A stretch of 64,000 bases of DNA, taken from Ostreococcus lucimarinus. Its lineage: Eukaryota. The notes beneath the pieces were generated by a model. It was given only the letters and a program-made list of their open reading frames with translations. It was not told the origin of the DNA and ran no database searches. The position numbers and the translations under genes are program-made. This document shows positions 19,331 through 59,244 of the stretch, one piece after another. Positions within the stretch are counted from its first letter, which is position 1. The number at the start of each line of letters is the position of its first letter. The stretch is from the NCBI GenBank assembly GCA_000092065.1, contig CP000587.1; one strand, 5' to 3'.

Positions 19331-21794
19331 ATGCGCTCCGTGCAGCTCGGCACGCACGCGCATAACGCCCTGCTCGGCGTCACAAGCGCGGGCGACGGTC
19401 GATGCGTGAGCACCGTAGCAAAAGACGGCGTCGTGACGTACGACGTCGAGGAAGAGGTAAAAGAGCGTTCACGCAATCGACGCGAAATATATGACAATAT
19501 TTGACGCACGCGTTGCGTCGCGTGCGTGCGGACGACGTTGTGCGCGCGCCGATCGCTCGAAGTTTGCGACGTCGTAAAAGTGGCGGCTGAGGGCGAAGGG
19601 CGAGTCGAGCACGTCGCTCTCGAGGCGTTCAAACGAAGCAAACGCGATCGAATGGAGCGAGAACTGACGATGAAAACGTTTTTACGCTTCGCAGAAACGA
19701 GAGCGAACGTTGGCGCTCGATCGAGGGCGAAAGTTTGCTTGCGCGGTGGCGTGTGGGTCGAATGGCAGGTATTACGCGTGTTTGGAGAAGGAACAAGAAA
19801 GTGATTCATCGTATTTGTGCGCGTGGGAGACGGAGCAAAGCGCAAACGCGGCGACGGTTGGTGAAGCATCGAAAGAGTGCGTCACAACTCTCGATTTAGG
19901 ACGCAGTGGTCGAGTGCGTGAGTTGGTGGCGGTGGACGGCGGCGCTCTCGTGGTGACGACAACGGGGGAGGTCCAACTCTTCGGGATGTCGGCGGAACAC
20001 ATTGACAAAGCGCGCACGAGTGGAGAGTTAGGCTCTCGACGAGTAGAGACGGCGTCGGTTTTACCTGAATCAGTTGGTGCACTCGTAGTGACGACGGATG
20101 GTAACTTTCAGGGTCGCAAAATAGCCACATTTCTTGCCCGCGCGCAAACCGTGACATTGGCTTGGGAGCTGGACATCGAGCACCCGGACGGCGCGGCAAA
20201 AGCCAGAGTGGCGAGCGCGGCAAGTGATGGGGAGACTTTCATGGTATTATGGGACGATGGCGTCTGGGCCCTGCACGACGCGAGCGATGGGTCTCTCAAG
20301 CACAAGCTGCGACTCGACGGGCTCGATGTGCATTGTGATGAAGCCACATCTGGGAAGCGGAGTAAGAAGAGCGAAGATACCTCACCGTTAGCAAGTGCGG
20401 CGTCTTTGTGCCTTTCTCAGGATTATTACGCCGTCGTGGCGAACTCGAAGGAAGAAAATACCGTGGTAGTGGCCGTTTTTGATTCGCGTTACGGCGCCGT
20501 GCACTTGGCGGAGGACGTTAGCCGAGGCTTAGAACACAAAGTTGGCCGAACGTCCGGGGTGAGCCTCGCCGCAACTTCGGGTAATCTGATCGTTGGTCTT
20601 TCTGATCAAGTGGTTTCGGTACAGTTCGATCTTCCTGAACTCTCTTTAGCTTCGCTCGTGGGATCGCTCAGCATACACTCGCAACCGGAGGCGAGCGCAG
20701 CGGCAATTCGAGTTTTGGGTGCGGAGACAGCATCTACGGCACTCGTACCGCCGCAACACGCGGCTGTGACACCTGGCTGGAAACTAGAGGAGTTAAAACT
20801 TGATGGCCAAGGAGTCGTCAGTTTGAGCAATGTCTGGGACGACGACGACGCACAGACCAGGGAGAAGAAGGTCCGGTCGACTGCTGAAGCTTTGGCGAGC
20901 GGTAGCAAAAAGGCGGGCTCATCGTTACAGACTCTGATGAAATCCCTTCCGATTCCGCAAATTCTCATAGAAAGTGCCATTAGTGGTGGTTTAAATCATC
21001 GAGTGTGGGATTCAGTGACACTTTTGCTCGCCGGTGGACACATTCGTGGCTCTTCGACGGCGAGACAATTAGTGACGGCGCTTCTTGAGGAAGACATGCT
21101 TGACGAAGTCAAGGACTTCTTAGTGTACGCCAAGGACGTTTCTGCTGAAGATATCGTTGCGATTTTACACTCTGCAATGATGCGAGACGAAGACGACCCT
21201 GGGTTGAAGAAGCGCGCTTCAGCGAACAAAAAGCTCGCAGAAAAGGTACTCGACGAAGCAGAGGCATGCGCGTCTGATGAAAAGTTCAATGGCGAAGCTA
21301 AACAAAAGCTGTTTGCCAGAGCTCAACTCTTAGTGAGTGCGTACGATAGTTTTGCACCATGGGCACAACAACTTCATCCCCTCATCGCTCGTCCGTTGGA
21401 TCCAACGATGGGTATGCTAGTGTTGCGTGATCTCTCCAAGCAAGACGCGGTTTCGCTACTTCAGTATTTGCTCGTCTGGGCTAACTTTTACGCTTCATCG
21501 GGCGGCTATTTCGCCCGGATCAACACTCTAGTCGAACCTGGGATTCCCAGCGCGCACGCGGTCGTGACGTGGACGTCCGCGTTGCTCGACGCGCAGTTCA
21601 CGACGTTTTGTCTCTCAGACGACGTCGCCGAACCCGTGCGCGCGCTGCGAGAGTCTTCGAGCCAAATGCTCGATATGATGCGCTCTTTAGCCGCCCTCGG
21701 AGGTGCGTTCAGACACGTCGGCGAGAACTCTCCGCTTCCCGAACAACACGGCGTACAGTCCACGACGTACACCGTAGAGAGCGTGGCTTGGTAA
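19331..21794 (+). CDS. Two-exon gene join(19331..19456,19695..21794) encoding a beta-propeller-like N-terminus plus a helical C-terminus (about 740 aa). Possibly nucleolar, but identity is uncertain.
   Basis: The track ORF starts at a TTG (19710). An upstream exon, ATG19331-MRSVQLGTHAHNALLGVTSAGDGRCVSTVAKDGVVTYDVEEE, ends at a GTAAAAG donor. The acceptor CAG at 19692-19694 restores the frame. GAACTGACG lies 26 nt upstream of the AG. Confidence 0.5.
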
Positions 21795-21839
21795 CTAAAA
21801 ACGTCGCGTTCACGTTGTTACAAATCGTCCAAAGCGCAC

Positions 21840-22097
21840 TCACTTCTTCGAACCGAACCATCTACTCTTTTTCTTCGCCTCTCGCGCCTTCCTCGCCTCC
21901 TCCGTCGCCTTTCTGTACCTCGCCGCGGTGTCTCCCTGTCGCATCAGCTTCTTCCCCTGTTGAAACCGTTCCTCGCGCGCGCGCTCCTTTTGCCATTGGT
22001 CCAGCGCGCCGAGCTGTCCACCGTACGCCGCGAGTCCGCCGGCGGCGAGAACGGCGACGCCCCACGCCGCCGCGCCGCCGTTTCGCACGCCGAGCAT
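21840..22097 (-). CDS. Small protein (85 aa) with an N-terminal Gly/Ala-rich hydrophobic helix and a Lys/Arg-rich tail. Function unknown.
   Basis: Genuine ATG at 22097. Fits exactly between converging and diverging neighbours. Sequence: MLGVRNGGAAAWGVAVLAAGGLAAYGG...KAREAKKKSRWFGSKK. Confidence 0.4.
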   Translation of the reverse strand: MLGVRNGGAAAWGVAVLAAGGLAAYGGQLGALDQWQKERAREERFQQGKKLMRQGDTAARYRKATEEARKAREAKKKSRWFGSKK

Positions 22098-22263
22098 CGC
22101 GACGCGCGCGCGTCGGCGAGTGTCGTCCCGCGTCGCCGGTGTCTCGGCGACGACGACGGACGACGGACGACGTCAACCCTAGGCCGAGGCTGAAATCGAC
22201 GAGGTCGGCGCGCGTCGAGCGACGCGCGATACACGAGGACGCGCGCGCGCGCGACGGACGCAG

Positions 22264-24513: not shown

Positions 24514-24549
24514 TAGCTGTCGCTGCTTAAATAACTAACAGTAGTTCTA

Positions 24550-25332: not shown

Positions 25333-25480
25333 GAACGACGACGAGTGGCGCGGCGTGGGGGCGTGGTCGTTTTAACGTTTGCGCGTCAACACGAGTTTCT
25401 GACTGTTTGCGTTTCAACGTATAAGATCTCTGTCGTCCGTGCGTCGAGCGTTGAGATGAGATGAAAAGCGGTGCGATGTA

Positions 25481-30512: not shown

Positions 30513-33482
30513 TCACGTGAGAACCTTTTCCACGAAGTCGGCGCCGGCGATGGTGGCGATTTCTTCGATGACATCCTCTCGCGCGGGGGGATCGGGGTTG
30601 GGTAACCAAGACAAAGAGTCGGGAAGCGCCGCGTCCGCGTGGACGGCGTTTGGCTTGAACGCGACGCCGACGACGTCGCCTCCGTATTTATCCACAAACA
30701 TCAGCGCAGTGCCACCGACTCGATCTTCGGCATCCTTAATGAAACATTCGGTCGGGTCGAATCCTATGAGTAACGCCTCTCGCGCCTTGTCCGGACCTTT
30801 GTTCAAAAGCTTGGGCGGAAGTTTCGCGAGCTTGATGCTTTGCGCCAAGGTTTCTTCCTCGTCCTCATCTACGACGCTCATTTCGTTCTCGAACTGCGCT
30901 CGCATTCGCTTGTACAAGCGCTTGCTAGGGAACAACGCATGTTTTGGGAACGGCAGCGCGGTTCGACGTAGAACAAAAGCGGCATCGAATCCACTGAGAG
31001 ACGGTTTGAAGAAGCGCTCCCAGCACTCCGTCTCAAACATAGAGTGCTTCGACACGCCTTCGAGCACGGCTTGCATCTCCGACTGCGCTCGAGCTGCGAT
31101 GGAAACGAGTCGTTTCAGAACGACTGCGCCTGGCCCACTTTGTGTGAGCCGAATCCCGCTCCTATCGTGCGGCGTGACTATGCACATTGCTGGCGCTGTT
31201 TTCGCCGTTCTGTCGATGCTCTCAATCTCGGCGTCGCTCACGATACCTTCGGGATCTAATACTACCGGATCGAACCAAATGTGCGACGCAAATAGATTCA
31301 AGAAGCGCAAAAATGCCACCTCGCGGGACATCGGAGGCAAAGCTGCGCCTGGGTTGACGAACAACAACGCCACGAGGGCCTCGATCGCTTCGTCAGAAAG
31401 GTGTGGCGAAAACATGTGCGACGAGACCCAACGATTGATGAGCTGCGTCGAAAGGCCATACATCGGAAATCTTGCAGCAATTGATGCAATCAATCCAGCG
31501 TGAGATGCTCTCTCGATGAGTTTTCCCTCCGTCGCCTTGACGTGCGGACCACCGGCAGAGGCATTTACGTGAATGCGAAAAGCGTATCCTTCAAACAAAA
31601 TGTCAATCGCCTCTTCAGCGATGACACTTGGCATCGCGTAACTCTTTCGAAGAGACTCTGCGAGCTGTATGGCCATCATCGATCGCGTCTTTGCGATCGC
31701 GTCGGGGTCCTCTGGCCATCGACCGCTGCCCTCGAGGGACACCATGATGTCAAGAGTTTTGGGACATACAGCAATGTCGTCTTCGCTCTTTCCCAAGCCA
31801 ACGCCCGCACCGTGTGCTAGTGGATGCGGCGTCGGCGGAAATGGATCGGTTCCACGAAATGCTCCGCTCAAAGGCTGGACGTTGTTCACTTTGAGGGGCA
31901 TTTCTTTCAAATCCTTCATTCGTTTCGCCAAGCGATCCAACGTCTGAAGCAAACTCGCCGGAGAAGTACCTTCTTTCGAGCTGGCAATCTTGCTCAGAGG
32001 CTCGTCGAACATCTTTGAGCTCCATTCTATCTCATCGACGTTTGCCAGGTTGAGCTTCAGCGCTTGTTCGGCGACAATAGCTGGTATGTGATGTCGATTC
32101 GTCGGCGGAACAAAATCCCACACCACCGATTCACAGATTCGTCCATCCTTGAAGCGACGGAGCTCGGACCGTTCGCCCCAAAACTTGCGAAATTCTTTAG
32201 CTTCTTTGTCATCAGCCGAACTCGGACCGATGTCGACCAGTCGCAACGCGTGTTCAGGATCCAAAATTACCCCAACCCATATCTTGCACGATGCACTCCC
32301 GACGGTGTCGACGCTCGAACTTTGCGGCTCAAACGCACGAACGAGTTTTGCACGATCGCTCAAAGCGCGAGTAACAATACGTGCTACGTCTGATTCTGCG
32401 GTACGACGCCCACCCAAGTCACATTCGCCTTCATCTGCATTAACCATCACGTCGACGTGCATATGCAAATCGTACCGAACCGCGGCGGGACATTGGCCAA
32501 GTAACACGTTGCTAAACGCGGAATGACTAGATCTCTTCAACTCAGACGCTGAAAGTATCGCCTCGTGAATTAGCTCCTGCACCGCGCTCGCAGACATTCT
32601 CGCCATAATATTCACATGTCCACAAGGTCCAAGGAAAACGTTTGCGAAAGCGCGCTGCCACTCGCCCGCTTCTGCGGGTTTACCGCTTGCGTACAAACCC
32701 TTCTTAAAGAAGCCAGGCTTAGCGAGCGCGTTAATCGCGGCCCGAAACATCTGGCTAGTGTCCATACTACTACTCAATTGACCACCTCGCTCTAGCATGT
32801 ATGCGAAGAGCATCGAAATGAAAAATCCACTGACGCCATCCGCTGCGTCCAGCAACCGCCTTCCCTGCGCCCATCGCTTGAATAGCACCACCGCACCGGG
32901 CAAACTCTTCGCTTTCTTCGATGCTGCGGCAAAGAACTGTGCATGCATGCGTGCATACATGTCTTCCGCGATGGACTGGTTGTAATGCGGGCTCGCCGGC
33001 CGCACGTCTCCCCGTGCCAGCCTTCGCACGTTTGCTCTGTTAGGCAACAATCGAACCGATGCGAAAGTTTCGGGGTCTATCGTCAAAAACAAACGAAGTG
33101 CTTTTTTATTTTGCTTTTCTCCAAAGTGTACCGTGATATACGGCTTCCTTGCATCGCGGTGCTGGTCCATCACTTCGCACGACCACTCGGACGACTTCGA
33201 CAACTTTTTATGCAACACGTCCAGGTACACCGCTCGCTTGAAGTGATACCTGTGATCTAAATAATCCTTTTCTTGAAAGAACGACCGAGGCATTTCTACC
33301 GCGACGTCCACGACGACCCCTCCGTCACCATTCATGGGTACGTTGAAGCACCCTCCCTCTGCGTGACTCCCAATCGAGACGACCCGCGTCGGCGGCGCGA
33401 ATTTCAACGTCTTCCCCTCCACCTCCTCGCACTCCACCGCAAACCACGCCGGTGATTTGGCTTTAATTTCCTTCTCTTTCAA
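30513..33482 (-). CDS. NOL6: Nucleolar protein 6 / Nrap (UTP22-like SSU processome component). The 5' end is unresolved.
   Basis: VVSIGSHAEGGCFNV...FFQEKDYLDHRYHFKRAVYL matches the NOL6 Nrap nucleotidyltransferase-like domain, and the C-terminal domains align. The track start is a TTG with no in-frame ATG upstream of the conserved domain. Confidence 0.8.
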   Translation of the reverse strand: MKEKEIKAKSPAWFAVECEEVEGKTLKFAPPTRVVSIGSHAEGGCFNVPMNGDGGVVVDVAVEMPRSFFQEKDYLDHRYHFKRAVYLDVLHKKLSKSSEWSCEVMDQHRDARKPYITVHFGEKQNKKALRLFLTIDPETFASVRLLPNRANVRRLARGDVRPASPHYNQSIAEDMYARMHAQFFAAASKKAKSLPGAVVLFKRWAQGRRLLDAADGVSGFFISMLFAYMLERGGQLSSSMDTSQMFRAAINALAKPGFFKKGLYASGKPAEAGEWQRAFANVFLGPCGHVNIMARMSASAVQELIHEAILSASELKRSSHSAFSNVLLGQCPAAVRYDLHMHVDVMVNADEGECDLGGRRTAESDVARIVTRALSDRAKLVRAFEPQSSSVDTVGSASCKIWVGVILDPEHALRLVDIGPSSADDKEAKEFRKFWGERSELRRFKDGRICESVVWDFVPPTNRHHIPAIVAEQALKLNLANVDEIEWSSKMFDEPLSKIASSKEGTSPASLLQTLDRLAKRMKDLKEMPLKVNNVQPLSGAFRGTDPFPPTPHPLAHGAGVGLGKSEDDIAVCPKTLDIMVSLEGSGRWPEDPDAIAKTRSMMAIQLAESLRKSYAMPSVIAEEAIDILFEGYAFRIHVNASAGGPHVKATEGKLIERASHAGLIASIAARFPMYGLSTQLINRWVSSHMFSPHLSDEAIEALVALLFVNPGAALPPMSREVAFLRFLNLFASHIWFDPVVLDPEGIVSDAEIESIDRTAKTAPAMCIVTPHDRSGIRLTQSGPGAVVLKRLVSIAARAQSEMQAVLEGVSKHSMFETECWERFFKPSLSGFDAAFVLRRTALPFPKHALFPSKRLYKRMRAQFENEMSVVDEDEEETLAQSIKLAKLPPKLLNKGPDKAREALLIGFDPTECFIKDAEDRVGGTALMFVDKYGGDVVGVAFKPNAVHADAALPDSLSWLPNPDPPAREDVIEEIATIAGADFVEKVLT

Positions 33483-34144
33483 CTCTACGTCGGTGTGTCG
33501 TCGATCAAACGTCTCGTCAGTCTCGTTTCTTCGCGACTCGTTCGCCCGTTCGTCCTCGTCGTCCTCCTCGCGCGTCTTCGGTCTCAGTCATATGCTTGTC
33601 AATGTAAACATCACGAGGATATTCAGTTCTCAAAGATTAATATGTCTTCATCACCGACCGTCGACGCGCGTGGATGAGCCCTCGGCCCGGCTCCTCCTCG
33701 CTCACCGCGCGTTCGCTCGCTTCGTCGCACCTCGCACCGCCTCGCGCACCGCCCCGAGCGCGTCCTCGCTCGACGCCCGCGCGCGCGCTGTCGCCGCGCA
33801 TTCGTTCACGATCTCTCGCGCCAGCGTCTCGTCGTACGACGCGGCGGCGAACGCTTCGTCGTCCATCGTTCGTTTCCCTCGCTTCCCTCGCGAGCGCGCC
33901 TCCGGGACGACGACGCGACGACGCGCCGTCGCGATGTGAGGCGCGCCGCAGCCGCCACTCGGCGCGTCGAGGGATCGATTGATTGGTTGATTGCGGCGTG
34001 CGATGACTCGAATGCGTCATCGCACGGCGCGCGAATCGCGAATCGTGAAAACTCGCGACGAAAGCGCGGACGCGACGCGGACCGAGGCGCGTCAACGGCG
34101 CGCGACGCGCGTCTAGAACGAGCGAAGGACGAACGAAGGCGAGG

Positions 34145-34915
34145 ATGAATGCTCTGACGCAGATTAAGAATACGCAAAAGGCGACGATGCGGGAGATTGA
34201 GAGCGGGATGGGGGAGGAGGCGTCGTGGCACGCGAGATATAAGCACTCGGCGTACGTCTATGCCGGTGGATTAGCGTTCAACATGACGGAAGGGGACATT
34301 CTGGCGGTGTTCTCACAGTTTGGGGAGGTCGTCGACGTCAACTTGGTGCGCGACGAGGAGAAGGGTAGGAGTCGAGGATTCGCGTTCATTTGTTACGCCG
34401 ATCAGCGCTCGACGGTGTTAGCGGTGGATAACTTAAACGGTGCCACCGTTGTGGGACGAACGATCAAAGTCGATCACGTGGATGATTACAAGATGAAGAA
34501 CGAAGACGACGCGAACGCGAGAGAGTGGAAGTGCGCGTGCGGGTCTGAGAATTTCAAGTTCCGAGAAGCGTGTTTTAAGTGCGGTGCGCCTCGACCGGTG
34601 GTTAAGAGTGCGGTAGAGGAAGAACTAGAAAGACCCATCGCGGCAGACGGTGGTCGTGAAACTCGCGTTGAGGATAGTCGAGACGTCGTTGACGCGGCGG
34701 GTCCTCGAAACGCCGACGCGGAGGACGAAGATGCGCGAATCATTCGTGAGCTTATGGAGCGTAAAGCCGCGGCTATCGCGCGTGCAGAGGCTGCGGCGAA
34801 AGGTCTAACTATTCCTGGGGACGAGAAGGATGAGAAGAGAGATAGAAAACGGCATAAGAAGGAAAAAAAGGAGAAGAAGGAACGTCGCAGAGAACGCAGT
34901 CGGAGCCGAGACTAA
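34145..34915 (+). CDS. RBMX2/Snu17(Ist3)-like RRM splicing factor (RES complex) with a RanBP2-type zinc finger and a basic K/R tail
   Basis: WHARYKHSAYVYAGGLAFNMTEGDILAVFSQFGEVVDVNLVRDEEKGRSRGFAFICYADQRSTVLAVDNLNG is near-identical to RBMX2. WKCACGSENFKFREACFKCG is a ZnF_RBZ. Confidence 0.8.
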   Translation: MNALTQIKNTQKATMREIESGMGEEASWHARYKHSAYVYAGGLAFNMTEGDILAVFSQFGEVVDVNLVRDEEKGRSRGFAFICYADQRSTVLAVDNLNGATVVGRTIKVDHVDDYKMKNEDDANAREWKCACGSENFKFREACFKCGAPRPVVKSAVEEELERPIAADGGRETRVEDSRDVVDAAGPRNADAEDEDARIIRELMERKAAAIARAEAAAKGLTIPGDEKDEKRDRKRHKKEKKEKKERRRERSRSRD

Positions 34916-34974
34916 CTAGTTGTAGCATCATTTGTAGCGAGATATCATGATTTTAGCGTCTATTACAAATATAT

Positions 34975-36213: not shown

Positions 36214-37187
36214 GGCGTCGCGCAGTGCAGCCGCGGCGGTTGGTCGGAAAAATCTAAAATTGCGAGCCGAAGGACGAGGGACGAATTTTCAAAGTCAGAC
36301 TAAGCGATGCAAGAAACTAATAGACTACTCACGCCCACGCGGAGACGGAAGAAACACTACGAACGAGCACGTCGTTGAACCACGCGACGAAGGCGACGGT
36401 AAGAAACACCATGACGAGTCCGACGAATGGCGTCACCGCTTCTTCCCGCGCGCTCGAGTCGTCAAACGCCCCGCTCGATAACTTTGTCATCGACGGCTTG
36501 CGCTCAGGAAACCCGTTCGGCAGCGAGCTTTCGAATCGCACCTTCGACCGCTGTCGTTTCTCCGCGAAACTCCCCGACGGCGATAAGATCCCTCTCGCGC
36601 TTCCGTGTCGTCCCACCGCTCGCGCGCTCGCGGAGACGCCGTCCTCGTCCTCGTCCTCGCCTCGCGCGTCTAACAAATCCTCTTCGAAATCGTCCTCCTC
36701 ATCGATCCCTCGTCGAAACGGTCGTCCGCGCGCGTCGTTCTCTTTCCCATCCAACCACCGCGTCGTCTTCCTCGCGTCGCGTCCGCGCGGCGACGTCCCA
36801 TTCGTCGGCGACGCGCCCATCGTCGCGCGTCCGCCCTCGCGGTGTGCGCGATCGTCCGCCGTCGACGGTGCCGCGTCGTCGCGCGCGCGCGCCTCGCGCG
36901 TGGGTTCACCCATCACTCGCTCGTCCGGTCTCGGACGCGCGCGCGACGCCGTGTGTCCATCACACGAGTCCCGAACGCCGTCGCACCATCCATCCATCGC
37001 GCCATCCATCGGCGGTCCGACGGATCCGGATCGGGACGCGGGCGCGATGGACGGATGGCGTGACGACGACGACGCGTCGACGTCCGCACGCGGTGGCGCG
37101 CGAATCGAATGTTCACCGCGTCGTGCGCGCGAAGAGCGACGACGAGGACGACGGCGCACGCGTTGCGCGCGCTGAAACGCGCGCGAC

Positions 37188-37220
<33 letters not shown>

Positions 37221-37246
37221 CGGCATCGCGCTCGACGCCGTCCGCG

Positions 37247-37744
37247 ATGCGAGGGGTGAAGAAGGAAAACTTGCCGAGCAAGGTGTGCGTGGTGTGCGAC
37301 AGACCGTTCACGTGGAGGAAAAAGTGGGAAAACTGTTGGGACGAAGTGACGACGTGCTCGAAGTCGTGCAACGGTAAGAGGAAGAGCGAACGACAGCGAG
37401 AGAACAAGGAAACGCGAGGCGAAGACGAAGACGAAGACGCGCGAGCGGCGCATAAGAAGTCGGTCAAGGCGCAAAAGGCGGAACGGAGGGCGCGATTAGA
37501 ATTCAATGGTAATCCAACGAGCGGGCAAAAGGCGTGCGATGAATGCTCGAAGATGGTGAACGAGCTGATTCGATGTCAAACGGACGCGACGAAACGGTGG
37601 CGTATGGTCTGCGGTTCGTGTTGGGTGAAAGTGAGCGGCGGCGTGGTGGATGGTGACGCAAATCACCCGCATTATCGATACGGTGGGTTATGGAAGAATA
37701 GACGCGCGCAAAATGCCGACGGAGGCGAGCCTTTAGTCTGTTAG
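37247..37744 (+). CDS. DUF2256-type zinc-finger protein with an additional C-terminal Cys-rich module (165 aa)
   Basis: [30 protein letters not shown] matches the DUF2256 signature (CxxCxRPFxWRKKW...W..V.YCS..C). The second module is [15 protein letters not shown]...WRMVCGSCW. The track ORF (37109) is TTG-initiated. First ATG at 37247. Confidence 0.6.
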
Positions 37745-37774: not shown

Positions 37775-38817
37775 TTACAGTTCCGCCTTGGCTTCCTTCG
37801 TCGCGTATTTACCGAGTCCGATGGTATTTTTTGATCGCTTGTCCGCACGTTTGATGGGAAACGGCATGCGTCCTCGTTGTGCTTCCTCGGGTAACATCGC
37901 CAAATACTTGTTGCAGAATTGAATCAGGGTGTTTTCGTTGAAACTATCGATCAGCCTCGCCTCGGCGTCGCGCTTCTTGCTCACGGGATCGTAACCGACG
38001 ATCGCAAGCCTTCCCCCAGCGAGCACGTCCATGTACTCCTGCTCCTCACCCTCGTAAACGGCAGTTTGCAAATATATGAGATCCTTTGTCGTCGGCGGCA
38101 CGACGTGAATGAGAACCATAAAGCCAGAAATGGCCTCTCCGACCTTTTCTAATGTTTTGTGAATGCGCACCCCATACTCGTCCGCGAATTCTTTAAGCAT
38201 GAACACAAACACTTTGGGCATGTCATTTTTCGCGTGCAGATTCGCTCGTTGAACTTCATCGACGGTACCTCTATTATCGGGAAACTCGGGCCATTTCGCG
38301 TACGGCGGAATGAGAGTGAAGAATGCGAAGCGCACTATGCTCGACACGTTGCGTTGCAAGCTCTCGGTCATCTCAGTCATGTGGTCGCTGTCCATGTAAT
38401 GTGGCGCCGGAATGAACACCTTGGCGAGTGCGTGCTCAGACTTCAATTTCAACGCTCGGCCGAAAGTGACATCATCGTGTCCGTACGAGCGAAACGTGTT
38501 TTCCGCGTCGGTGAACGCGTCAATCGCCGCTTGATGAACGCTCCCGGGCCGAAACAAAGCCAGAACCGCCAGCGTCTCCGTGCGTGAATCTTCGACAAAT
38601 TTGAGCAAGTCTCTTTCGGCGTCGAACTCCTCGACTGCGCGCACACCGGTGAACCGCTACGATCGAGGAATCCTCCGGTCAGTCTCACCACGCGCGCTCA
38701 TCGTGTCGATCAATTCAAGGCCATACGAGAACGAGTTCGAGGCGCCGTCGCTGCGCTTACCTCGCTCGCGAAGCACAACGCGAGGATAAGTGCGATTACT
38801 GATAACGATCGTCGCAT
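37775..38817 (-). CDS. Two-exon gene join(37775..38656,38761..38817) for an ER-luminal protein (312 aa): signal peptide plus a thioredoxin-fold-like body, ending in KAEL (a KDEL/KEEL-like retrieval signal)
   Basis: Exon 1 is ATG38817-MRRSLSVIALILALCFASE followed by a GTAAGC donor. A 104-nt intron ends CGATCGTAG and contains GAGACTGACC 23 nt upstream of the AG. Exon 2 begins RFTGVRAVEEFDAERD and is in frame to the stop at 37775. The track ORF began at a GTG inside exon 2. Confidence 0.6.
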
Positions 38818-38934: not shown

Positions 38935-39768
38935 ACAGTCGAGGCCGAGTTGTGAACGTCAACATGGAAAGTCTTACCCAGGTATCCATATGGATTTCGA
39001 TGCCCGCTCACAAATCGCGGAGAATTCAAGGAAATCCCCGACGGCGTACGCTGCACACCATGAACGCGCGTCGCGGTCGATTCGGCCGGCGTCGCGGTCG
39101 CTACCTCGGCGCGCGAGAAATAAATGAAATAATTAAATAATTTCTATGCGAACGCCACGGGCTCGCCAGCGAAGCGTCAATCGCGCGTCGCGCTCGACGC
39201 CCGTAATAATGCGATCACGAATCACCAATGGAATTAATTTCACGCGAAACCACGCGCATCTCGGTCGTCTGATATCAAATTCACACTTTCGACGACTGCT
39301 GGGCGAAAATTTCTCACATCGAGATGATCTGTCAAAACACATGCATGTCGCGTCGATAGGCGTAGAACCACCAAAAGTGCATTTGTTGGAGGTAAATGGT
39401 GTGTCGAAACTCATAGCCGCAACTTTTACAAAACCTTGACGCGATTCAGTGCTTGTGCATTCACGTTCCATGATGACGATAATTAAATATAATCTGAGCG
39501 CTTAAAATAATTAATTGCGCGGCGGAAACAATTCATTCGCGCTTGATATTGCACGTGCTATCTTGCTAAGTTTTCTAGTACTCTATCCTTGCGAGACTCC
39601 TCAAAATCATCGAGTCTCGCGCGAGTAGCGAAATAAATCCACCCGCGACGAAAATTAATAAGCCAATTAAATAAATCAGTCCGTGAAGAAATCGCCTGTG
39701 AGCGCACGTAATTTTGTTAGTCATCCTACGGAGAGCGTTCTGCGAGTGTGAGCGATCTTAGTGAACAC
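38935..39768. other. Atypically AT-rich intergenic island (about 830 bp) with reiterated AATTAAATAA-like motifs
   Basis: Contains taaatgaaataattaaataattt, gataattaaatataatc, aaaataattaattgcg and aaaattaataagccaattaaataaatcag. Base composition contrasts sharply with the flanking GC-rich DNA. No ORF or recognisable RNA gene. Confidence 0.5.
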
Positions 39769-41106
39769 TCACCTGAAGCACAGGGCAATCACGGGTCGGC
39801 CTTCGAACTTTTTCGCTGCTGCAATTAATTCTCCGAGTGGCGGTCCTAGAATCGTGAGAACGCTCACCACGCCAACGTGAGCGTACGTTCTCAGGATTTC
39901 ACGTATCTCAGGTAGGAAACATAATTTATGTTGAATTAATCCCGATCCGCTGGCGTCGAAACTCTCGCCTGCGGCTTCGGGAACGGTCAACATTAAATAA
40001 CTCGGTTGGTCGTTTCCATTCAACGCACTCACGGTGCCGACGGTTATTTCGGTCACTGCGACTGTTCCTCCCGCAAGTGCCGACTCGTACGCGTGCGTTA
40101 CCTCACACTGATCGTGGTCGTGCCCCGACAACACCAACACCGGCTCAACCGCCCGGAGCAATCGCTGCGCAGACTCGTCCGAGAGGTAGTCTTGATAAAT
40201 AATTTCCTTGTCTGAACCGAGCGTGCGGCCTTGAATTGCTTGCGAGTTTCGAAATGGCCCGCATCGCTGCGATGGATTGGGAAGCGGCAAGTGCGTCACG
40301 AGCACTCTCTTTACGTACGGCTCTTTCTTTTGAGCGCTTAAGCCATCCACGAACGCCCACGTCTCGTCTGTGGCCGGTCCTTTGCCGTCGAGGACCATGG
40401 CGTTGACGCCTACGAAGTCAACGCCGCCGATGCGCTCGACAAAGTTACTTTTTCCATACCATTCTTCGAACCGTGCGAGGATTCTGGGATGATGGCGAAT
40501 GACTTCGGAATAACCAACGTCATGGTTACCGGCGACGGTGTGGTACAACGGCCCACCATCGCCGTTTCTCGGCCACCAGAGCGCGGCGTCGACGCGACGC
40601 CGCAACGCGCGCCACTCGTCGTCGTTTCTACGTGCACCTTGCCCGAACAAGTCCCCCAGAAACACCACGTTTCTCGGTGCAAATCTTCTCAACCCTGCCT
40701 TCATCGTCCGTCGCACGTAGGCATCGCACACGGCTTCCGCAAACGCGAGCGCGCGCGACCGTCTGCCGAGCTCCCTGTACGTGTACTCGTCCACCAACTG
40801 TGGGTCCGCGGTCACCATCACCCTCGTCCCGTTCGCGCCGTGCGGCCACGAACATCGACGCTGCGCTACGACGTGCGAGTAGACTTCGCCGTGATGAAGC
40901 ACCGCGCCCCAAATCACGAATAACGACGCGTACAAAACGCGCGGTGGCCGCCCGCCGCGCCTTTCCGCGCGCCCATCTTCGTCGCCCTCGCGCGGTCGCC
41001 CGACGTCGCCTCGGCGCCGCGCGTTCGACGTCGACGACGCCGCGCGCGACGTCGAACGCGCGCGCGCTTCCGCGTCGTCGTTCGCGCGCCGTCGACGCGT
41101 CGACAT
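39769..41106 (-). CDS. Metallophosphoesterase of the MPPE1/PGAP5/Cdc1 family, with an N-terminal TM anchor
   Basis: Calcineurin-like phosphoesterase motifs: VTADPQL, FLGDLFGQG, VAGNHD and SGHDHDQC. N-terminal TM helix LYASLFVIWGAVL. ATG at 41106. Confidence 0.7.
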   Translation of the reverse strand: MSTRRRRANDDAEARARSTSRAASSTSNARRRGDVGRPREGDEDGRAERRGGRPPRVLYASLFVIWGAVLHHGEVYSHVVAQRRCSWPHGANGTRVMVTADPQLVDEYTYRELGRRSRALAFAEAVCDAYVRRTMKAGLRRFAPRNVVFLGDLFGQGARRNDDEWRALRRRVDAALWWPRNGDGGPLYHTVAGNHDVGYSEVIRHHPRILARFEEWYGKSNFVERIGGVDFVGVNAMVLDGKGPATDETWAFVDGLSAQKKEPYVKRVLVTHLPLPNPSQRCGPFRNSQAIQGRTLGSDKEIIYQDYLSDESAQRLLRAVEPVLVLSGHDHDQCEVTHAYESALAGGTVAVTEITVGTVSALNGNDQPSYLMLTVPEAAGESFDASGSGLIQHKLCFLPEIREILRTYAHVGVVSVLTILGPPLGELIAAAKKFEGRPVIALCFR

Positions 41107-44796: not shown

Positions 44797-45921
44797 ATGA
44801 CGACGACGTATTGGCTCGTGAGTCTACCTCTGCGCGGGTCGAGCGCGGACGCGGCGTGGGCGACGCTGCAGCGACACACGGGCGGGAGCAACGATCTGTC
44901 GCTGAACTATAAGATGCGATGCCCGGACCTGCGCGTGGGGACGCTGGACAGTCTGTTGGCGCTGAGCGATGATTTGGTCAAGGTGAACGCGCTGGCGGAG
45001 CAGGTGGTGGAGAAGGTGCGGCGACAGTTCGGCGAGCTCGGCGACGCGACGACGAGCGAACGAGAACTGCGCGTGGATGGTGAATCCGTCGAACGATATC
45101 TGACGACGTTCGAGTGGGATGAAGCGAAGAATCCGGCTCGACGAGCGTTGAAGGAGACGGTTGAGAAGCTCTCGGAGCGCTTGTCGCGCATCGACGAAGA
45201 GTTCAAATTGAAGTGCGGGCAGTTGGCGACGTCTAAAAATCATCTGAACGCCATCGTTCGTAAAGTTGGGAGCGGGGTGAACGCACAAGATTTGAGCGAC
45301 AAGGTCAATCCCGAGGATTTAGTTCAGACAGAAAACTTGACCACGCTCGTGGTGCAAGTGCCGAAACTGAAGACAGAGGTTTGGACGAGCTCGTACGAGA
45401 CGCTAGCGAGCTTCGTCGTGCCGCGTTCTTCAAAGATTATTCACGTCGAAGATGATTACGAGTTACGAACGGTGGTATTGTTCAGGCGTGTCGTCGATGC
45501 GTTCACGACCGCGGCGCGAGAGATCGGCTGCACTGCTAAGGAGTATTCGCACGATCCTGAAGCGTCGAGAGCGGCGAAATCGCAACGAGGTGCGCTAGAG
45601 CAAGAAGTTGTCCAGAGGAGAGATTCTTTGTTAGAGTGGTGTCAGATAAGCTACGGTGAGGCTTTTAGTACTATGATGCACGTGTGCACGGTGCGCGTAT
45701 TTGTGGAGAGTATTTTGCGCTATGGCTTACCGCCGGATTTTCAAGCCGTCCTCATGCGACCCAATATGAAGCACGTGAGCAAGCTGCGAAAAGTATTGAA
45801 TCAAGAGTTCGGCAAAGACGCCTCGTCGCATTGGGATGACGAAATCGGCGGTGATGAGAAATCTGGCGGCGGTTTGGTGGAAGACATGTACTCGTACGTG
45901 TCTCTGACAATGAAGGTTTAA
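44797..45921 (+). CDS. VHA-C: V-type H+-ATPase subunit C
   Basis: N-terminus YWLVSLPLRGSSADAAWATLQ...MRCPDLRVGTLDSLLALSDDLVKVNALAEQVVEKV aligns with V-ATPase C subunits. ATG at 44797. Confidence 0.9.
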   Translation: MTTTYWLVSLPLRGSSADAAWATLQRHTGGSNDLSLNYKMRCPDLRVGTLDSLLALSDDLVKVNALAEQVVEKVRRQFGELGDATTSERELRVDGESVERYLTTFEWDEAKNPARRALKETVEKLSERLSRIDEEFKLKCGQLATSKNHLNAIVRKVGSGVNAQDLSDKVNPEDLVQTENLTTLVVQVPKLKTEVWTSSYETLASFVVPRSSKIIHVEDDYELRTVVLFRRVVDAFTTAAREIGCTAKEYSHDPEASRAAKSQRGALEQEVVQRRDSLLEWCQISYGEAFSTMMHVCTVRVFVESILRYGLPPDFQAVLMRPNMKHVSKLRKVLNQEFGKDASSHWDDEIGGDEKSGGGLVEDMYSYVSLTMKV

Positions 45922-46040
45922 CAATGCTCGCAGCGACTAGCGCGCACACGCAACGATAGCATAGACATTAACGAATTCGCAACATCTTCATTGAAAAACA
46001 CTGCATCTACTATCTAAATTTGTCTGCCCTTTCCTCGAAA

Positions 46041-47791: not shown

Positions 47792-48574
47792 TTAAATGGC
47801 ACCGATGTTTTTCAGGAGCGCGGTGTGAGTCGGGAACGGGTCCGATTTACCATCTGCGATCGCTTTTTCGGATAAGCCGTAGAAGTAACCGTTTCGCCAA
47901 GGAAATTCCTTGACGCCGCACGGGAAATGTGCGACAGTCTTTGCGTACGCGATCAGTCGATCGACGGCTCCGGGGGCGAATTTCGCCCCAGTGCACGCGG
48001 TAGTACCAGACAACAATTCTTCGATCAAAGCCACGACTTCATCTTTGTACGTCGTCGCGACGTCGCCAACCTTGGCGCCTTCGTGTTGAGCGCCGACCAG
48101 CATCATCGCGCAAATCCATATCAATTTCTCGTACATGGAACCTTCGTACGTCGGAGCGTCTAAAACGTGGCAACTCAAATCACCGTTATGGAAACGCGCG
48201 GCGACGGCGTCGGCCCACTTGCCCGTCGCCGCCGTGAGACCTTCGGGGTTTAACTCAGTTACCCCGTCGGTTGGCTTGTCGCCGAGAGCGGCGACCGCAA
48301 AATAAATTAGCGCTTGAGTGTTCGCCCCAAGACCTTGCGCATCGAGAAACTGCTGCAGCATCCCGTTTTGCATGAAAACCAAATCTTCTCTGCGGTCGGC
48401 CGGACAATTTTTGATCACATCTTCCAGCACGTCGTTGCGAGTGGCGACGTAAATCGGCCCCGTCTTGGGCTCGCTCGGAAACGCCTCGCCTCGGCGCACG
48501 ACGACGTCGCCCTCGACGCCCATATCCCTCAACGCTTGCCCGACGCGTCCACCACCGATGATAATGGACGGCAT
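47792..48574 (-). CDS. NAD(P)-binding oxidoreductase, ketopantoate-reductase (ApbA/PanE)-like fold. Assignment is tentative.
   Basis: N-terminal Rossmann GxGxxG (IIIGGGRVGQAL). The C-terminal half resembles the ApbA_C helical domain. ATG at 48574 (the track start codon is a GTG 3 nt upstream). Confidence 0.4.
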   Translation of the reverse strand: MPSIIIGGGRVGQALRDMGVEGDVVVRRGEAFPSEPKTGPIYVATRNDVLEDVIKNCPADRREDLVFMQNGMLQQFLDAQGLGANTQALIYFAVAALGDKPTDGVTELNPEGLTAATGKWADAVAARFHNGDLSCHVLDAPTYEGSMYEKLIWICAMMLVGAQHEGAKVGDVATTYKDEVVALIEELLSGTTACTGAKFAPGAVDRLIAYAKTVAHFPCGVKEFPWRNGYFYGLSEKAIADGKSDPFPTHTALLKNIGAI

Positions 48575-48863
48575 CACTTCACCTTTCGTCGCGTTCTGCG
48601 CGCGCGACGTTCACACGTCAGTCATTAATCCACGTCTGCAAATCAATCGGCGCGTGGCGGGGTCGCGTCGATGCGTCCTGAACGCACCGTCATGACGCTC
48701 CAGACGCGTCGAACGGAGGTTTTCGCGGCGTGAACGCGAGCGTTAGGGACGATGTTTACTTTCGCGATCGCAGCGTTGGCGTGCATAACGATCTGCGCGC
48801 GCTGGACTGAGGCGCTTCTCGACAGGTGGGGGCTTCGTGTTTTTACAAATATCCACACACGAA

Positions 48864-50198: not shown

Positions 50199-50780
50199 AT
50201 GGGTAAGAAAGGAAAAGGTACCGGGTCCTTCGGTTCCCGACGTAACAAATCGCACACTCTGTGCCGACGGTGCGTGTGCGCTCGAGACGACGCGCGCGAC
50301 GCGAGGGAGGCGACGACGCGGGAAGACGACGGTGACCCTAGTAGGGCTTTGGGATGACGACGACTGACGACGACGACGCGACGCCGACGCGTCGTTCGCG
50401 CGCGCAGATGCGGGAAGCGATCGTACCACATTCAAAAGTCTACGTGCGCGGCCTGCGGGTATCCGTCCGCGCGGACGCGTTCATGTACGTGTGCACGATG
50501 CGAAGTCGACTCGACTCGATCGCGGCGGAGCGTCGATCGCGGGCGACGAGCGCCGCGAGACGTGGCGTCTCGCGACGCGCGACGGCGAGCGAGAGCTCGA
50601 AGCGCGCGAGATTGGTGACTGACCTTTCCTTGTTTTCAACGCACAGACAACTGGAGCGTGAAGGCGATCGGCCGCAAGACCACGGGTACCGGCCGCATGC
50701 GCTACTTGAAGACCTTGCCCAGAAGATTTAAGAATGGTTTCCGGGAAGGTACGGAGGCGAAAAAGAAGGTCGCTGCGTAA
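50199..50780 (+). CDS. RPL37: Cytosolic ribosomal protein eL37, three exons: join(50199..50269,50408..50484,50647..50780), 93 aa. Missed by the ORF track.
   Basis: Spliced product [23 protein letters not shown]|[26 protein letters not shown]|[44 protein letters not shown] carries the C4 zinc ribbon and the conserved eL37 C-terminus. Introns are GTGCGT...CGCGCAG (138 nt) and GTACGT...ACGCACAG (162 nt), each with ACTGAC upstream of the AG. Confidence 0.85.
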
Positions 50781-51019
50781 ACGCGACGTGGTTTCTTTTA
50801 GCGGGGAAGAGTAGGGCGAGTTCTTTTAGGAAGACGAATTTCGAGATGAGTAGTGGGTTGTAACACGATGCGTACTCGGTTGGAATTTTACCTCGAACGA
50901 GTCGACGACGCGCGGGCGAGACGACGACGCGCGCGTCGGTGGCGCGCAAACGCTTGGATGTCGCGCTAAGCTGGCTATATATTCTTACGACATAACTCGG
51001 ACTACGAATTTGAGTCGCG

Positions 51020-51967: not shown

Positions 51968-52263
51968 CTCGAGACCCCGCGCCGAACGCGCGACGCGACG
52001 CACTGCGGACGACAGCCCCGCGCGCGCGCCGACCGACCGACGACTGGGCGACGCGGGATCGTCCTGGGGTTCATCCTGGGGTTCAGGCTGAATCCTCGAT
52101 TATTTTTAGCGATCGTCGAGACGCCCTCTCGTCGCGCATTGAAGGATGCGAATGCGCCGTGATGTGTCCCCTCCGCGCGCGACCGCGACCGCGACGCCAC
52201 ACGGCGACGCGCGACGTCACGCGCGATTGATTTGATTTGATTTGGATTGGATTCGATTCATCG

Positions 52264-53214: not shown

Positions 53215-53266
53215 AACTGCTGCTACTACTACTATTTTTAAAGAATGCGCTTTGCTACGTCTAAAA

Positions 53267-56269: not shown

Positions 56270-56397
56270 GGACGACGCGCGACGTCGTTGACCGACGCGT
56301 CGCGGTGTGCGCGCCCGAACCGCGGTCGCGTCGACACAGCGACGCGCGCGCGACGAGCGCGCGATCGACGACGACGACGGACGCGAGCGCGCGAACG

Positions 56398-57333
56398 ATG
56401 CGATCGTGTCGATCGCCCGCGGGCGACGCGGCGTGCGCGAGGACGTCGCGCGGGGCGCACGAACGCGCGCGAGTTGGACTTCGAGACGGCGCGAGACGAC
56501 GCTCTGACGCGCGCGCGCGCGCGCGAATCGACGTGCGGACGCGCGCGGTGGAGGACGAGGACGAGTTTGCGATATTTCGATTCACGCTCGGGATCCCAGG
56601 GTTCGACGACGAGGACATACCGCGCGCGGTGGGCGCGCTCGGGGCGCTCGGGCTTTGCGCGAACAGATTCGCCGCCGGTACCGATGGGGCGTCGGATGCG
56701 CTGGCGAGGAGTGAAATCGTGGGCGTTGGGCTGTGTTTGGCGTGCGCGCTGGCGCCTGAGCTCGGGCGAGCGCTGAAAGGTGACGAACGGGGGGGCGCGG
56801 CGAAGGGGAGGTCGAACGCGGATGTCGACGGCGCGAGTTCGGTGTTCGCGCTGAGCGAAGACGCGAGCGAGAGCGCCAAGGAGGACTGCGCGTGGGCGTC
56901 GTATGCGATTTTGACGAACACACTCGCGAGTGGGGTCGTTTTCGTGGATGGGCGAGGGAACGCGCGGCTCGCACGAGGGACGGTGCGCGGGCGGGACGAC
57001 GGCGCCCCAGACTCGAACAAAGCCGACGTCTTGGCGCGCGTCGGTCGGGCTTGGAGCGAGGTTTCATCGACGATTGGAACGGATAAAATCGCTTCGAGCG
57101 CGCCGCCGAGTGCGGAAGAAGAATATCACGCCAGTCGTTGGGAAATTGATCGCGCGGGCGCCAACGTTTGGGGCTTCCTTCCGCCCACCGCCGAAACCGT
57201 CTTCGCGCGTCGATCGCCCGAGAACGGCGGCGTGCTCATCGCTTGGAGCGATGCCTCGCGCGGCTTTAGCAAAAAGGATCGCTCTTGGCTCCAAGCCTTG
57301 GCGCGCAAGCTCGACCTCGCGTTCGCGTCTTAA
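56398..57333 (+). CDS. Hypothetical protein with a plastid-transit-like N-terminus (311 aa)
   Basis: ATG at 56398 after a GTG-initiated GC-rich leader. Diverges from the GCP gene 128 bp away. Globular, non-repetitive C-terminal two-thirds. No family recognised. Confidence 0.4.
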   Translation: MRSCRSPAGDAACARTSRGAHERARVGLRDGARRRSDARARARIDVRTRAVEDEDEFAIFRFTLGIPGFDDEDIPRAVGALGALGLCANRFAAGTDGASDALARSEIVGVGLCLACALAPELGRALKGDERGGAAKGRSNADVDGASSVFALSEDASESAKEDCAWASYAILTNTLASGVVFVDGRGNARLARGTVRGRDDGAPDSNKADVLARVGRAWSEVSSTIGTDKIASSAPPSAEEEYHASRWEIDRAGANVWGFLPPTAETVFARRSPENGGVLIAWSDASRGFSKKDRSWLQALARKLDLAFAS

Positions 57334-57642
57334 ATACTCGCGATATTTAAACACGTCTAGCCTAGCGGTGTGTTAGCGAGAGAAAACGCTCGAAAAATGC
57401 GTTATTTCGTGCGTCCCACGACGTCTTGTCGGTCAAAATCTTGCGCGCGCGAGCTCGGACGTTCGCACACCTCGACGCGAACGCGCACGAGCGTCCATCC
57501 CACGCCGTCGCGCACGAGGGTGCGGAGACGCGAGTACGAAGCGATCGACGCGCGTCCCGAACGCGCAAAGGGTGCGCCTCTTCGGTGAATCCACTCCAAT
57601 CCAACGCGACGACAAGTTCGAGACACGCGACGACGACGCTGA

Positions 57643-59244
57643 ATGGAGAGCGATTACGGCATCGTCGATGGGTTCGATGAACCTCCACACGCGTTCATCA
57701 AATCCTTGTTGTCCAAGCCGATCATCGTGCGCAAGCTCGCGGATAAATTCTTTGGAGGGGACAAGACGCGCGTGGAGGACGAGTACGAGGCGCTCACAGA
57801 GGAAGAATTGGACAAGTTTTTCATAAGCGAATTCGGTGGGGGAACGTTTCGAGCGGGACGAGAGTATTCATTCATCTTGTATGGCGCGAGTGGGTACACG
57901 GGGTCGCTGTGCTTGGAGTATATCCTTAAGACGGTGCAGAATCTCGGGAGCCGCGTGACGTTTGCGCTCGCGGGGCGAAACGAGGCGAAATTACGCAAGC
58001 GTTGGGCAGATGTGACGTCGAGATATCCGACGGAGTACGAACCCGGATTCATTACGTGCGACTTGGCAAATCCAGTAGCGATTCGTGAGATGGTTCTCCA
58101 GGCCAGAGTCGTGGTGAACATCGCCGGACCTTTCATGCTCACGCCCGCGGATATGTTGGTGCGCGTGTGCGCGACGTGACTTTTGCGCGAGCGCGTTGAG
58201 ACTACTATTTTCACGACGACTCGATGACTGACGGACAACCGCGTTTCCCTCAACTCGACGTAGGCCGAAGCTTGTATAGAGTACGATACGGATTACGTCG
58301 ACGTCAACGGCGAAGTACCGTTCACCAAGAAGCTCATCAAGTATCACGACTGGGCCAAGGCGAATAATGTTCTCGTCGTCCCAAACGCCGCGGGCGCCGG
58401 TGGCATTCCGGACGTCGGGTGCTTCTACACCGTTCGTGAGCTTCGCAAAAGAATCGGCAAGGATGTACCAGTGAGCAAGATGCACATGTATCTCTATGGT
58501 AGCGCCGGTGGGGCTCCATCTGGGGGGACGCTTGCGACTCGAGCCGCGATGACGGCGGCGATGAAGGACGTCGCCGGTTTGATGGCGAACCCGTTCGCGC
58601 TCGGAGGCTCAATCGAAGGCGGTAGCCGGCCCGAAGACGCCGATCGTAACTTGAGTCAAGTTGAGTATGACCCGGACTACGACGCGTGGAAAGCACCGTT
58701 CACGTACGCCTTCTATGAGACTCGCTTGATTCGTCGAGCGAATTGGCTCCTTCGTGATCTCGGACGGTTTCCGTACGGTCGCAACCTAAACTATCTCGAA
58801 CATCTCATCCTGCCGACGGAAAAATCGGCAAGAGATTTACAAAGCTCGAACACAAGCTCGAAGGCCGAGGAAGAGAAGCTGCGCAAGGAGGGTAGATTAT
58901 TCAAATTGGGCGAAGGTCTCGACGAGTCTGCGCGCGATTCCATTTGGTCTGAATACTGGTTCGACGCCGTCACGCCCGAAGGCGAAAAGATTCGTACTCG
59001 ATTGACCGGCAAGGATGGTTACGACGAAACCGCACACATGGCTATCGAACTCGCGATTCTGTGCTCGGAATATCGCGAAAAACTCCCTTTCAGGGGCGGC
59101 GTGCTCACCCCCGGTGTCGCCGGCGGCGACCCGTACATCGAAGCGCTTCACTCCACCGGTCTCAACTTCGAAGTCTTATCCAACGACGCCAAGGTTGATT
59201 TCTCGCGTCTCGCGAACGCAATCGTCGCGTCTTCCGCGGCATGA
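57643..59244 (+). CDS. Saccharopine-dehydrogenase-like oxidoreductase (SCCPDH-like), two exons: join(57643..58158,58264..59244)
   Basis: Exon 1 is FILYGASGYTGSLCLEYILK...VVVNIAGPFMLTPADML. A 105-nt intron runs GTGCGC...TCGACGTAG, with GACTGACGG 32 nt upstream of the AG. Exon 2 is in the second track ORF's frame: AEACIEYDTDYVDVNGEVPF..., which matches SCCPDH (…VKACIENGASCIDISGEP…). Confidence 0.75.

Follow-up and report, generated by a model that had tools for sequence, protein, structure and literature searches.

Constrained splice signals in the short spliceosomal introns of a gene-dense Ostreococcus lucimarinus segment

Introduction

Five introns in four genes of a 64,000-nt stretch of Ostreococcus lucimarinus DNA (contig CP000587.1; the whole stretch is called the window below) look as if they had been built to one plan, and the question raised by this locus is why. 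An original prediction, made by reading the letters, described them as compact introns of 104 to 238 nt with similar donors and an ACTGAC motif shortly before the acceptor, and offered two explanations for the likeness: a related, introner-like origin or simply the constraints of splicing. Our analysis assigns them, almost certainly, to the canonical U2-type GT-AG spliceosomal introns of O. lucimarinus CCE9901, whose nuclear genome is intron-poor.

The architecture itself is correct and is already known, as every element of it was published in 2008 for the same species. In a section entitled 'The peculiar case of Ostreococcus', Irimia & Roy (2008, PLoS Genet 4:e1000148; PMC2483917) analyzed introns outside chromosome 2 that were confirmed by expressed sequence tags and found ACTGAC in 87.2 %, ACTRAC in 90 % and the extended box GACTGACG in 66.5 % of them. 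The same class has an atypical donor consensus, GTGCGTG, a preference for CGCAG acceptors and a branch-to-AG distance with a broad peak at about 20-35 bp (PMC2483917).

Results

Five introns with a common set of signals

Re-reading of the sequence returned all five introns with the predicted coordinates and lengths. They are listed here together with the putative branch motif and the distance of its branch A from the 3' end of the intron:

19457-19694, plus strand: intron of the beta-propeller/NOL11-like gene (XP_001418767.1), 238 nt, donor GTAAAAG, acceptor CGCAG
19663-19668, plus strand: ACTGAC of the beta-propeller intron, context aACTGACg, branch A 27 nt from the 3' end
38760..38657, minus strand: intron of a gene for a secreted or endoplasmic reticulum (ER)-type protein, 104 nt, donor GTAAGCG, acceptor CGTAG
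38678-38683, minus strand: ACTGAC of the ER-gene intron, context gACTGACc, branch A 22 nt from the 3' end
50270-50407, plus strand: eL37 intron 1, 138 nt, donor GTGCGTG, acceptor CGCAG
50363-50368, plus strand: ACTGAC of eL37 intron 1, context gACTGACg, branch A 40 nt from the 3' end
50485-50646, plus strand: eL37 intron 2, 162 nt, donor GTACGTG, acceptor CACAG
50618-50623, plus strand: ACTGAC of eL37 intron 2, context gACTGACc, branch A 24 nt from the 3' end
58159-58263, plus strand: intron of the SCCPDH-like (saccharopine-dehydrogenase-like) gene, 105 nt, donor GTGCGCG, acceptor CGTAG
58227-58232, plus strand: ACTGAC of the SCCPDH-like intron, context gACTGACg, branch A 32 nt from the 3' end

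Each of the five introns contains exactly one copy of ACTGAC, and it lies near the acceptor as had been described. The distance to the AG, which had been called fixed, is in fact a range of 22-40 nt. The donor pattern GT[A/G][A/C]G holds for four of the five introns and fails for the beta-propeller intron, which starts with GTAAA.

Four further introns

For the search for additional introns, we considered open reading frames (ORFs) in which the coding signal or a Pfam domain begins upstream of any ATG, and used the ACTGAC signature as a lead. It led to three of the four introns that were added, while the ninth intron of the window was found by searching for versions of the branch box with one mismatch. 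The expectation that the signature can find missed exons was thus borne out by four recovered introns:

12824-12931, plus strand: intron of an RNase III-domain gene, 108 nt, donor GTGCGCG, ACTGAC at 12905-12910, acceptor CGCAG
33730..33485, minus strand: intron of the Nrap/NOL6 gene, 246 nt, donor GTGCGAC, ACTGAC at 33516-33521, acceptor CGTAG
39772..39696, minus strand: intron of a metallophosphoesterase gene, near its 3' end, 77 nt, donor GTGAGTG, acceptor CACAG
39716-39721, minus strand: branch motif of the metallophosphoesterase intron, ACTAAC and not ACTGAC
48687..48596, minus strand: intron of a ketopantoate-reductase-like gene (gene 47795; 47792-48786), 92 nt, donor GTGCGTT, ACTGAC at 48617-48622, acceptor CGCAG

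One of these introns is confirmed by transcripts and three by orthologous introns. In the RNase III gene, the Ribonuclease_3 domain lies on an exon-2 ORF that lacks a start codon, and there is a single in-frame choice of donor. In the annotated orthologue of Ostreococcus tauri, this position is occupied by an intron of 63 nt with the donor GTGCGA and the box GATTGACG. For Nrap, the donor at 33730 is the sole one in frame with the upstream ATG; a GTGAGC at 33705 breaks the reading frame and was rejected. The spliced Nrap protein has 1035 aa, compared to 1037 aa in O. tauri. Splicing of the metallophosphoesterase transcript adds a C-terminal transmembrane segment. The downstream exon of this gene is 80 % identical to that of a related Ostreococcus (L010), whose orthologue carries an intron at the identical position with a GTGCGT donor and GACTGACG. 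The ketopantoate-reductase-like gene is conserved in the green lineage, and its exon 1 encodes a 33-aa presequence.

Several other candidates were discarded. A possible intron at 36254-36332 on the minus strand (GTGAGTA/TCTGAC/TTTTAG) would fuse two ORFs in frame, but was rejected because the upstream ORF ends with a transmembrane tail and a stop codon, and the downstream phosphatase has its own methionine and presequence. Candidates with variant motifs at 5986-6121, 34746-34937 and 62908-63184 (all on the plus strand), and several more within long ORFs, either lie in continuous coding sequence or would remove conserved protein. A further candidate at 45656-45933 on the plus strand is contradicted by a colinear transcript contig (L011), and the ACTGAC at 32829 on the plus strand is antisense to the Nrap coding sequence and does not belong to the ER-gene intron.

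Support for the junctions independent of the branch motif

Precise removal from the mRNA is directly visible for two introns. Three transcript contigs from Logan assemblies of sequencing runs (L013-L015) match the beta-propeller gene with 99.96-100 % identity and lack precisely positions 19457-19694, and two more (L011, L012; 99.8-99.9 % identity) lack precisely 48596-48687 of gene 47795. A transcript contig of 4.8 kb is colinear with the genome except for one intron. For three introns the evidence is indirect and combines Pfam continuity with identity to annotated proteins, and for the remaining four it consists of the reading frame and orthologous introns only.

At the protein level, the spliced beta-propeller protein (741 aa) is identical to XP_001418767.1, spliced eL37 to XP_001418774.1 and the spliced SCCPDH-like protein to XP_001418777.1. 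Three of the four gene models of the original prediction therefore equal GenBank proteins exactly, which agrees with its argument that the regularity of the introns supports the models. In addition, the spliced ketopantoate-reductase-like protein of 300 aa occurs verbatim in the protein collection, whereas the spliced RNase III, ER and Nrap proteins had no exact match there.

Domain profiles point in the same direction. Spliced eL37 gives an unbroken match to positions 1-52 of 53 of Pfam Ribosomal_L37e, and positions 2-129 of 129 of Sacchrp_dh_NADP are matched by the spliced SCCPDH-like protein only, as the separate exons show no match. The SCCPDH-like junction is also contiguous in intron-less transcript contigs of a relative with 80 % identity, and the alignment of the beta-propeller protein to its O. 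tauri orthologue is gapless at the junction. The annotation of the syntenic O. tauri region contains complete genes with introns solely at the sites placed here.

The junction in the ER gene is based on the reading frame, together with conserved orthologous introns. Splicing keeps the frame, and unspliced read-through meets a stop codon. Exon 1 encodes a signal peptide, and the protein ends with KAEL. A 24-mer across the spliced ER junction had zero matches in JGI metagenome contigs; all 59 related loci that were returned are genomic with the intron present, and there was no transcript among them.

Signals shared by the nine introns

GT at the start and AG at the end are common to all nine introns. 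The donors are dominated by GTGCG (5/9), with one case each of GTACG, GTAAG, GTAAA and GTGAG, and the acceptors by CGCAG (4/9) and CGTAG (3/9). The branch box reads ACTGAC in eight introns and ACTRAC in all nine; the full GACTGACG is present in five. The branch A is located 21-40 nt from the 3' end, and the first YAG (Y, pyrimidine) past the box is the 3' splice site in every case, the only AGs in between being GAGs at 4-15 nt from the branch A. With 48 % pyrimidine, the segment from branch box to acceptor lacks a polypyrimidine tract; a pyrimidine-rich 3' segment is found in eL37 intron 2 only. Seven of the nine introns interrupt their gene within the first ~65 codons.

Copies of ACTGAC are scarce in the window. 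Both strands together contain 18 copies, fewer than shuffled sequences (25 +/- 5), and eight of the 18 lie in the branch-site zone of an intron. Among 6132 AG dinucleotides, 42 (0.7 %) have an ACTGAC 20-48 nt upstream. In dinucleotide-preserving shuffles of each intron, the chance of finding the motif in the right zone was 0.004-0.08 per intron and ~2e-9 jointly for the five introns of the original prediction. Circularity is not a concern for this enrichment test, as the junctions have support that does not depend on the motif. The description of ACTGAC as a genuine branch-site signal is supported.

The nine introns thus have the ends of U2-type GT-AG introns and a CTRAY-type box about 18-40 nt upstream of the 3' splice site, and for two of them removal from the mRNA was seen directly. 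A U12-type assignment, with the donor [AG]TATCCTT and the branch sequence TCCTTAAC close to the 3' end, was rejected, since the donors are GTGCG, GTACG, GTAAG, GTAAA or GTGAG and the box is ACTRAC.

They also carry the signals of the class described by Irimia & Roy: ACTGAC or GACTGACG, GTGCGTG-type donors, CGCAG-type acceptors and the spacing of ~20-35 nt. Both data sets come from one species, every signal agrees, the intron density is low and the box frequencies are comparable (8/9 and 9/9 here versus 87 % and 90 %). The window is a local sample of the published class, without substantive difference; two of the nine distances, 40 and 21 nt, are at the margins of the broad peak in that study. 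The locus fits as well. The eL37, SCCPDH-like and beta-propeller proteins match O. lucimarinus CCE9901 exactly, on a contig of 783,246 nt, and the window is syntenic with chromosome 7 of O. tauri (CAID01000007.2), which places it on a 783-kb chromosome outside the intron-rich half of chromosome 2.

Conservation of intron positions in relatives

For eight introns a comparison was possible, and each of them has a counterpart at the identical position in other Ostreococcus lineages; the one in the SCCPDH-like gene is shared with Bathycoccus as well. This SCCPDH-like intron sits at the same codon in two Ostreococcus relatives (L004, L010) and in Bathycoccus prasinos (assigned by cluster membership), whose protein is 58 % identical. 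In L010, the positions of five further introns are kept, the two of eL37 and those of the metallophosphoesterase gene, the ER gene and gene 47795; the orthologue of eL37 intron 1 carries GACTGACG, and the orthologue of gene 47795 has the intron together with an exon 1 of 33 codons. O. tauri shares the beta-propeller and RNase III introns. This positional conservation indicates that the introns predate the splits between the Ostreococcus lineages.

Orthologous introns retain nothing but donor, branch box and acceptor, while the lengths differ (63 versus 108 nt, 71 versus 105 nt). Such retention of signals, with length and sequence changing around them, points to selective constraint on the splice signals and not to a repeat family. 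For the ER gene, the intron is at the same position in five Ostreococcus lineages (four besides O. lucimarinus), with ACTGAC, TCTGAC or ACTGAT as box. Bathycoccus-like homologues of this gene are intron-less, and their signal peptide is joined directly to the conserved VEEF region.

The SCCPDH-like intron of B. prasinos (L005-L008, 5887-6000) has 114 nt, starts with GTACGT, is (CT)n-rich and contains no ACTGAC-like box. The strict branch box is therefore a feature of Ostreococcus that the sister genus does not share at this site.

Other features of the introns and of the window

A small nucleolar RNA (snoRNA) resides in the longest of the introns:

33580-33658, minus strand: box C/D snoRNA, inside the Nrap/NOL6 intron (33485-33730)

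It is well formed, with the boxes C (GUGAUGA), D' (CUGA), C' (GUGAUGU) and D (CUGA) and a terminal stem of 5 bp (CGGUC/GACCG). In Rfam it matches two families below the gathering thresholds (plant snoR66, 29.9 bits, E 2e-4; SNORD27, 25.2 bits, E 0.033). For the two guides, UUAAUCUUUGAGA and GACAAGCAUAUGA, the presumed complements are neighbouring stretches at the 5' end of 18S rRNA, which is universally conserved. The AT-rich core and the unusual length of the Nrap intron are explained by the snoRNA inside it.

The beta-propeller intron is 238 nt long in both O. lucimarinus and O. tauri (L009, 10127-10364), and the two copies share an exact 14-mer in the middle of the intron, AAAAGTGGCGGCTG, as well as shorter blocks. 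No Rfam family matched this intron at E <= 5. The 14-mer may be part of a conserved intronic RNA or a cis-element.

eL37 intron 1 contains a palindrome, GTGACCCTAGTAGGGCTT, at ~50333-50350 on the plus strand, with a telomere-repeat-like CCCTAAA / TAGGG core. It is kept as GTGACCCTAAATAGGGCTT in the otherwise diverged intron of L010, and is reminiscent of telo-box elements in plant ribosomal-protein genes. The 5' third of the RNase III intron holds a pentanucleotide microsatellite, (GATGC)7, at 12829-12865 on the plus strand, directly after the donor.

In three genes, exon 1 encodes only a short presequence, a signal peptide or a segment like a transit peptide, with the intron directly after it:

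47792-48786, minus strand: ketopantoate-reductase-like gene (gene 47795)
38657-38817, minus strand: ER-type protein gene
12628-12823, plus strand: RNase III-domain gene

The window is gene-dense, with ~39 genes and ~9 introns in 64 kb, among them plastid-type genes such as CCB2/CCB4 and DUF3769. The gene order SNF2, HIRA, RNase III, TIG/EGF, beta-propeller and onward to Nrap is that of O. tauri CAID01000007.2, and the beta-propeller proteins of the two species are 65 % identical. A weakly coding ORF at 36332-37453 on the minus strand, with a transmembrane tail at its end, overlaps a DUF2256 gene at 37109-37741 on the opposite (plus) strand.

Discussion

How could introns of different genes come to look alike? 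We propose that donor, branch box and acceptor, three signals under strong constraint, define these introns. The donor is G/C-rich in this model, with the consensus GTGCGTG and the variants GTACG and GTAAG. The branch box would be a near-invariant (G)ACTGAC(G), with the penultimate A as the presumed branch nucleotide, and the acceptor probably the first YAG 21-40 nt past the branch, usually embedded in CGCAG or CGTAG. Because a polypyrimidine tract is missing, the branch site probably serves as the anchor for choosing the 3' splice site, which is also how other intron-poor eukaryotes do it. In the predicted pairing with GUAGUA of the U2 small nuclear RNA (snRNA), the A of ACUGAC would be bulged, and the G would pair with U in place of the A-U pair of yeast. 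Between the signals, the sequence would drift freely, so that unrelated introns would be alike only at the boxes. Splicing constraint, which the original prediction had kept as its fallback, is thus the explanation that we favour: only splice signals are shared and conserved, and this is also the published reading (PMC2483917).

A few points weigh against this model. The role of the ACTGAC adenosine as lariat branch point, its box pairing with U2 snRNA and the selection of the first YAG by a scanning-type process are features that we infer from established knowledge of U2-type splicing. A search of the whole window with Rfam at the gathering threshold gave no matches, and there is no snRNA gene, U1 and U2 included, within the window. 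Furthermore, the junctions of the ER, RNase III, Nrap and metallophosphoesterase genes are without transcript support here, and the public annotation of the first three of these genes may differ from our models.

The cause of the strictness outside chromosome 2 was discussed as an open question by Irimia & Roy (PMC2483917). Strict signals could result from selection under a scarce or strict spliceosome, or from co-evolved snRNAs. The second option would mean a changed machinery, in which the strict GUGCGUG and GACUGACG are read by co-evolved U1, U2 and U6 snRNAs or by a second, specialised spliceosome, in contrast to the spliceosome that serves the weak-signal introns of chromosome 2. We consider this unlikely. 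The GTGCG donor, present in five of the nine introns, does deviate at positions +3 and +4 from GTAAGT, which is complementary to U1, the idea was raised for O. lucimarinus as worth exploring (PMC2483917), and, as far as the title of a preprint tells, a co-evolved snRNA has been reported in the intron-poor Entamoeba (10.1101/2022.06.08.495308). However, variants suited to standard snRNAs (GTAAGC, GTGAGT, ACTAAC) coexist in the window and are apparently spliced in conserved genes. A computational search in O. tauri that is cited by Irimia & Roy found only single-copy spliceosomal RNAs, and a single spliceosome was judged likelier (PMC2483917). The window itself carries nothing on snRNAs.

We give little credence to a broader alternative, according to which there is either a co-evolved U1/U2 or specialised spliceosome, or some Ostreococcus-specific introns are eroded relics of an ancient introner burst. 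In the relic variant, the ER-gene intron and others may be related to the Micromonas IE-C introner elements, which have the same GACTGACG box, but the window lends this no support. A specialised reading of the signals, if true, would mean two splicing regimes in one 13-Mb genome.

It is very unlikely that the introns are copies of an introner-like mobile family, which would have inherited their length, the ACTGAC and a GAGCGCG...TGAGACT pattern by recent common descent. Two of the introns are indeed ~105 nt long, GAGCGCG-N(0-10)-TGAGACT is confined to the ER and SCCPDH introns within the window, the IE-C class of Micromonas RCC299 has the identical GACTGACG branch motif (Verhelst et al., 2013; PMC3879977), and the ER-gene intron, being absent from Bathycoccus-like homologues, could be a gain of the Ostreococcus ancestor. 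These likenesses do not extend to the bodies of the introns. Pairwise Smith-Waterman comparison of the eight ACTGAC-bearing introns of the window, with the splice signals left in, gave scores no better than those of dinucleotide shuffles for all 28 pairs (maximum z = 2.4), and the ER and SCCPDH introns reached z = 1.2, with 16.5 % of the shuffles scoring as high. The GAGCGCG...TGAGACT segment, which had been put forward as a hint of relatedness, was correctly seen in those two introns only. Nevertheless, the pattern was chosen post hoc, GAGCGCG alone occurs 85 times in the window, and the register differs, as TGAGACT overlaps the branch box in the ER intron but lies 30 nt upstream of it in the SCCPDH intron. 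The pattern is also missing from the SCCPDH introns of L004 and L010.

Age and divergence argue against the mobile family as well. Identical intron positions in other Ostreococcus lineages, for SCCPDH also in Bathycoccus, make the introns older than the splits, and orthologous introns differ in length and in sequence outside the signals. The proposal of an introner-like origin consequently does not stand: the intron pairs are at the level of shuffles, and the positions are old. Compared to the introners of Micromonas (IE-A/B in CCMP1545, IE-C in RCC299), the introns studied here share a Mamiellophyceae host, their shortness and, for IE-C, the GACTGACG box. In contrast, Micromonas introners are multi-copy, similar over their full length and inserted in a lineage-specific manner, whereas our introns have only splice signals in common and are positionally conserved, with neither multi-copy similarity of their bodies within the window nor recent lineage-specific insertion.

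Finally, the first reading was done by eye, ACTGAC was the lead for three of the four extra introns and four junctions (ER, RNase III, Nrap, metallophosphoesterase) lack transcripts, but an artefact in which the motif is shared by construction and some introns are false is hardly conceivable, as the beta-propeller and gene 47795 introns are validated without the motif by transcripts and both eL37 introns and SCCPDH by profile continuity and GenBank identity, the motif is kept at orthologous introns despite diverged surroundings, genome and transcript are otherwise colinear along the 4.8-kb contig, and the annotated syntenic region of O. tauri has introns only at our placements.

The constrained spliceosomal introns favoured here can be compared to those of Saccharomyces and other hemiascomycetes with their TACTAAC box. 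Both systems have a near-invariant CTRAY-type hexamer, a strong donor, few introns, frequently located towards the 5' end of the gene, and a polypyrimidine tract that is weak or missing. They differ in the box, which is ACTGAC with a G before the branch A instead of ACTAAC, and in the donor, GTGCGT instead of GTATGT. The tight anchoring of the branch-to-AG distance that is known from Yarrowia, Trichomonas and Giardia is not found in the introns of the window.

As a discovery, these results carry little weight; their practical value lies in annotation. A GTGCG-type donor, an ACTGAC and the first YAG 21-40 nt downstream form a highly specific intron signature in this genome. There are only 18 copies of ACTGAC in 128 kb (both strands), eight of which are branch sites. 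The signature also recovers N-terminal presequence exons that are dropped by prokaryote-style gene callers. Of the three genes with a short presequence exon, two were searched in metagenomes, and the gene calls begin at exon 2 for both (e.g. P0198, with 260 instead of the true 300 aa). As a consequence, such metagenome catalogues systematically lack the targeting sequences of Ostreococcus proteins. With regard to the organism, the architecture of these introns is a textbook example of the strong splice signals that are the rule in intron-poor genomes.

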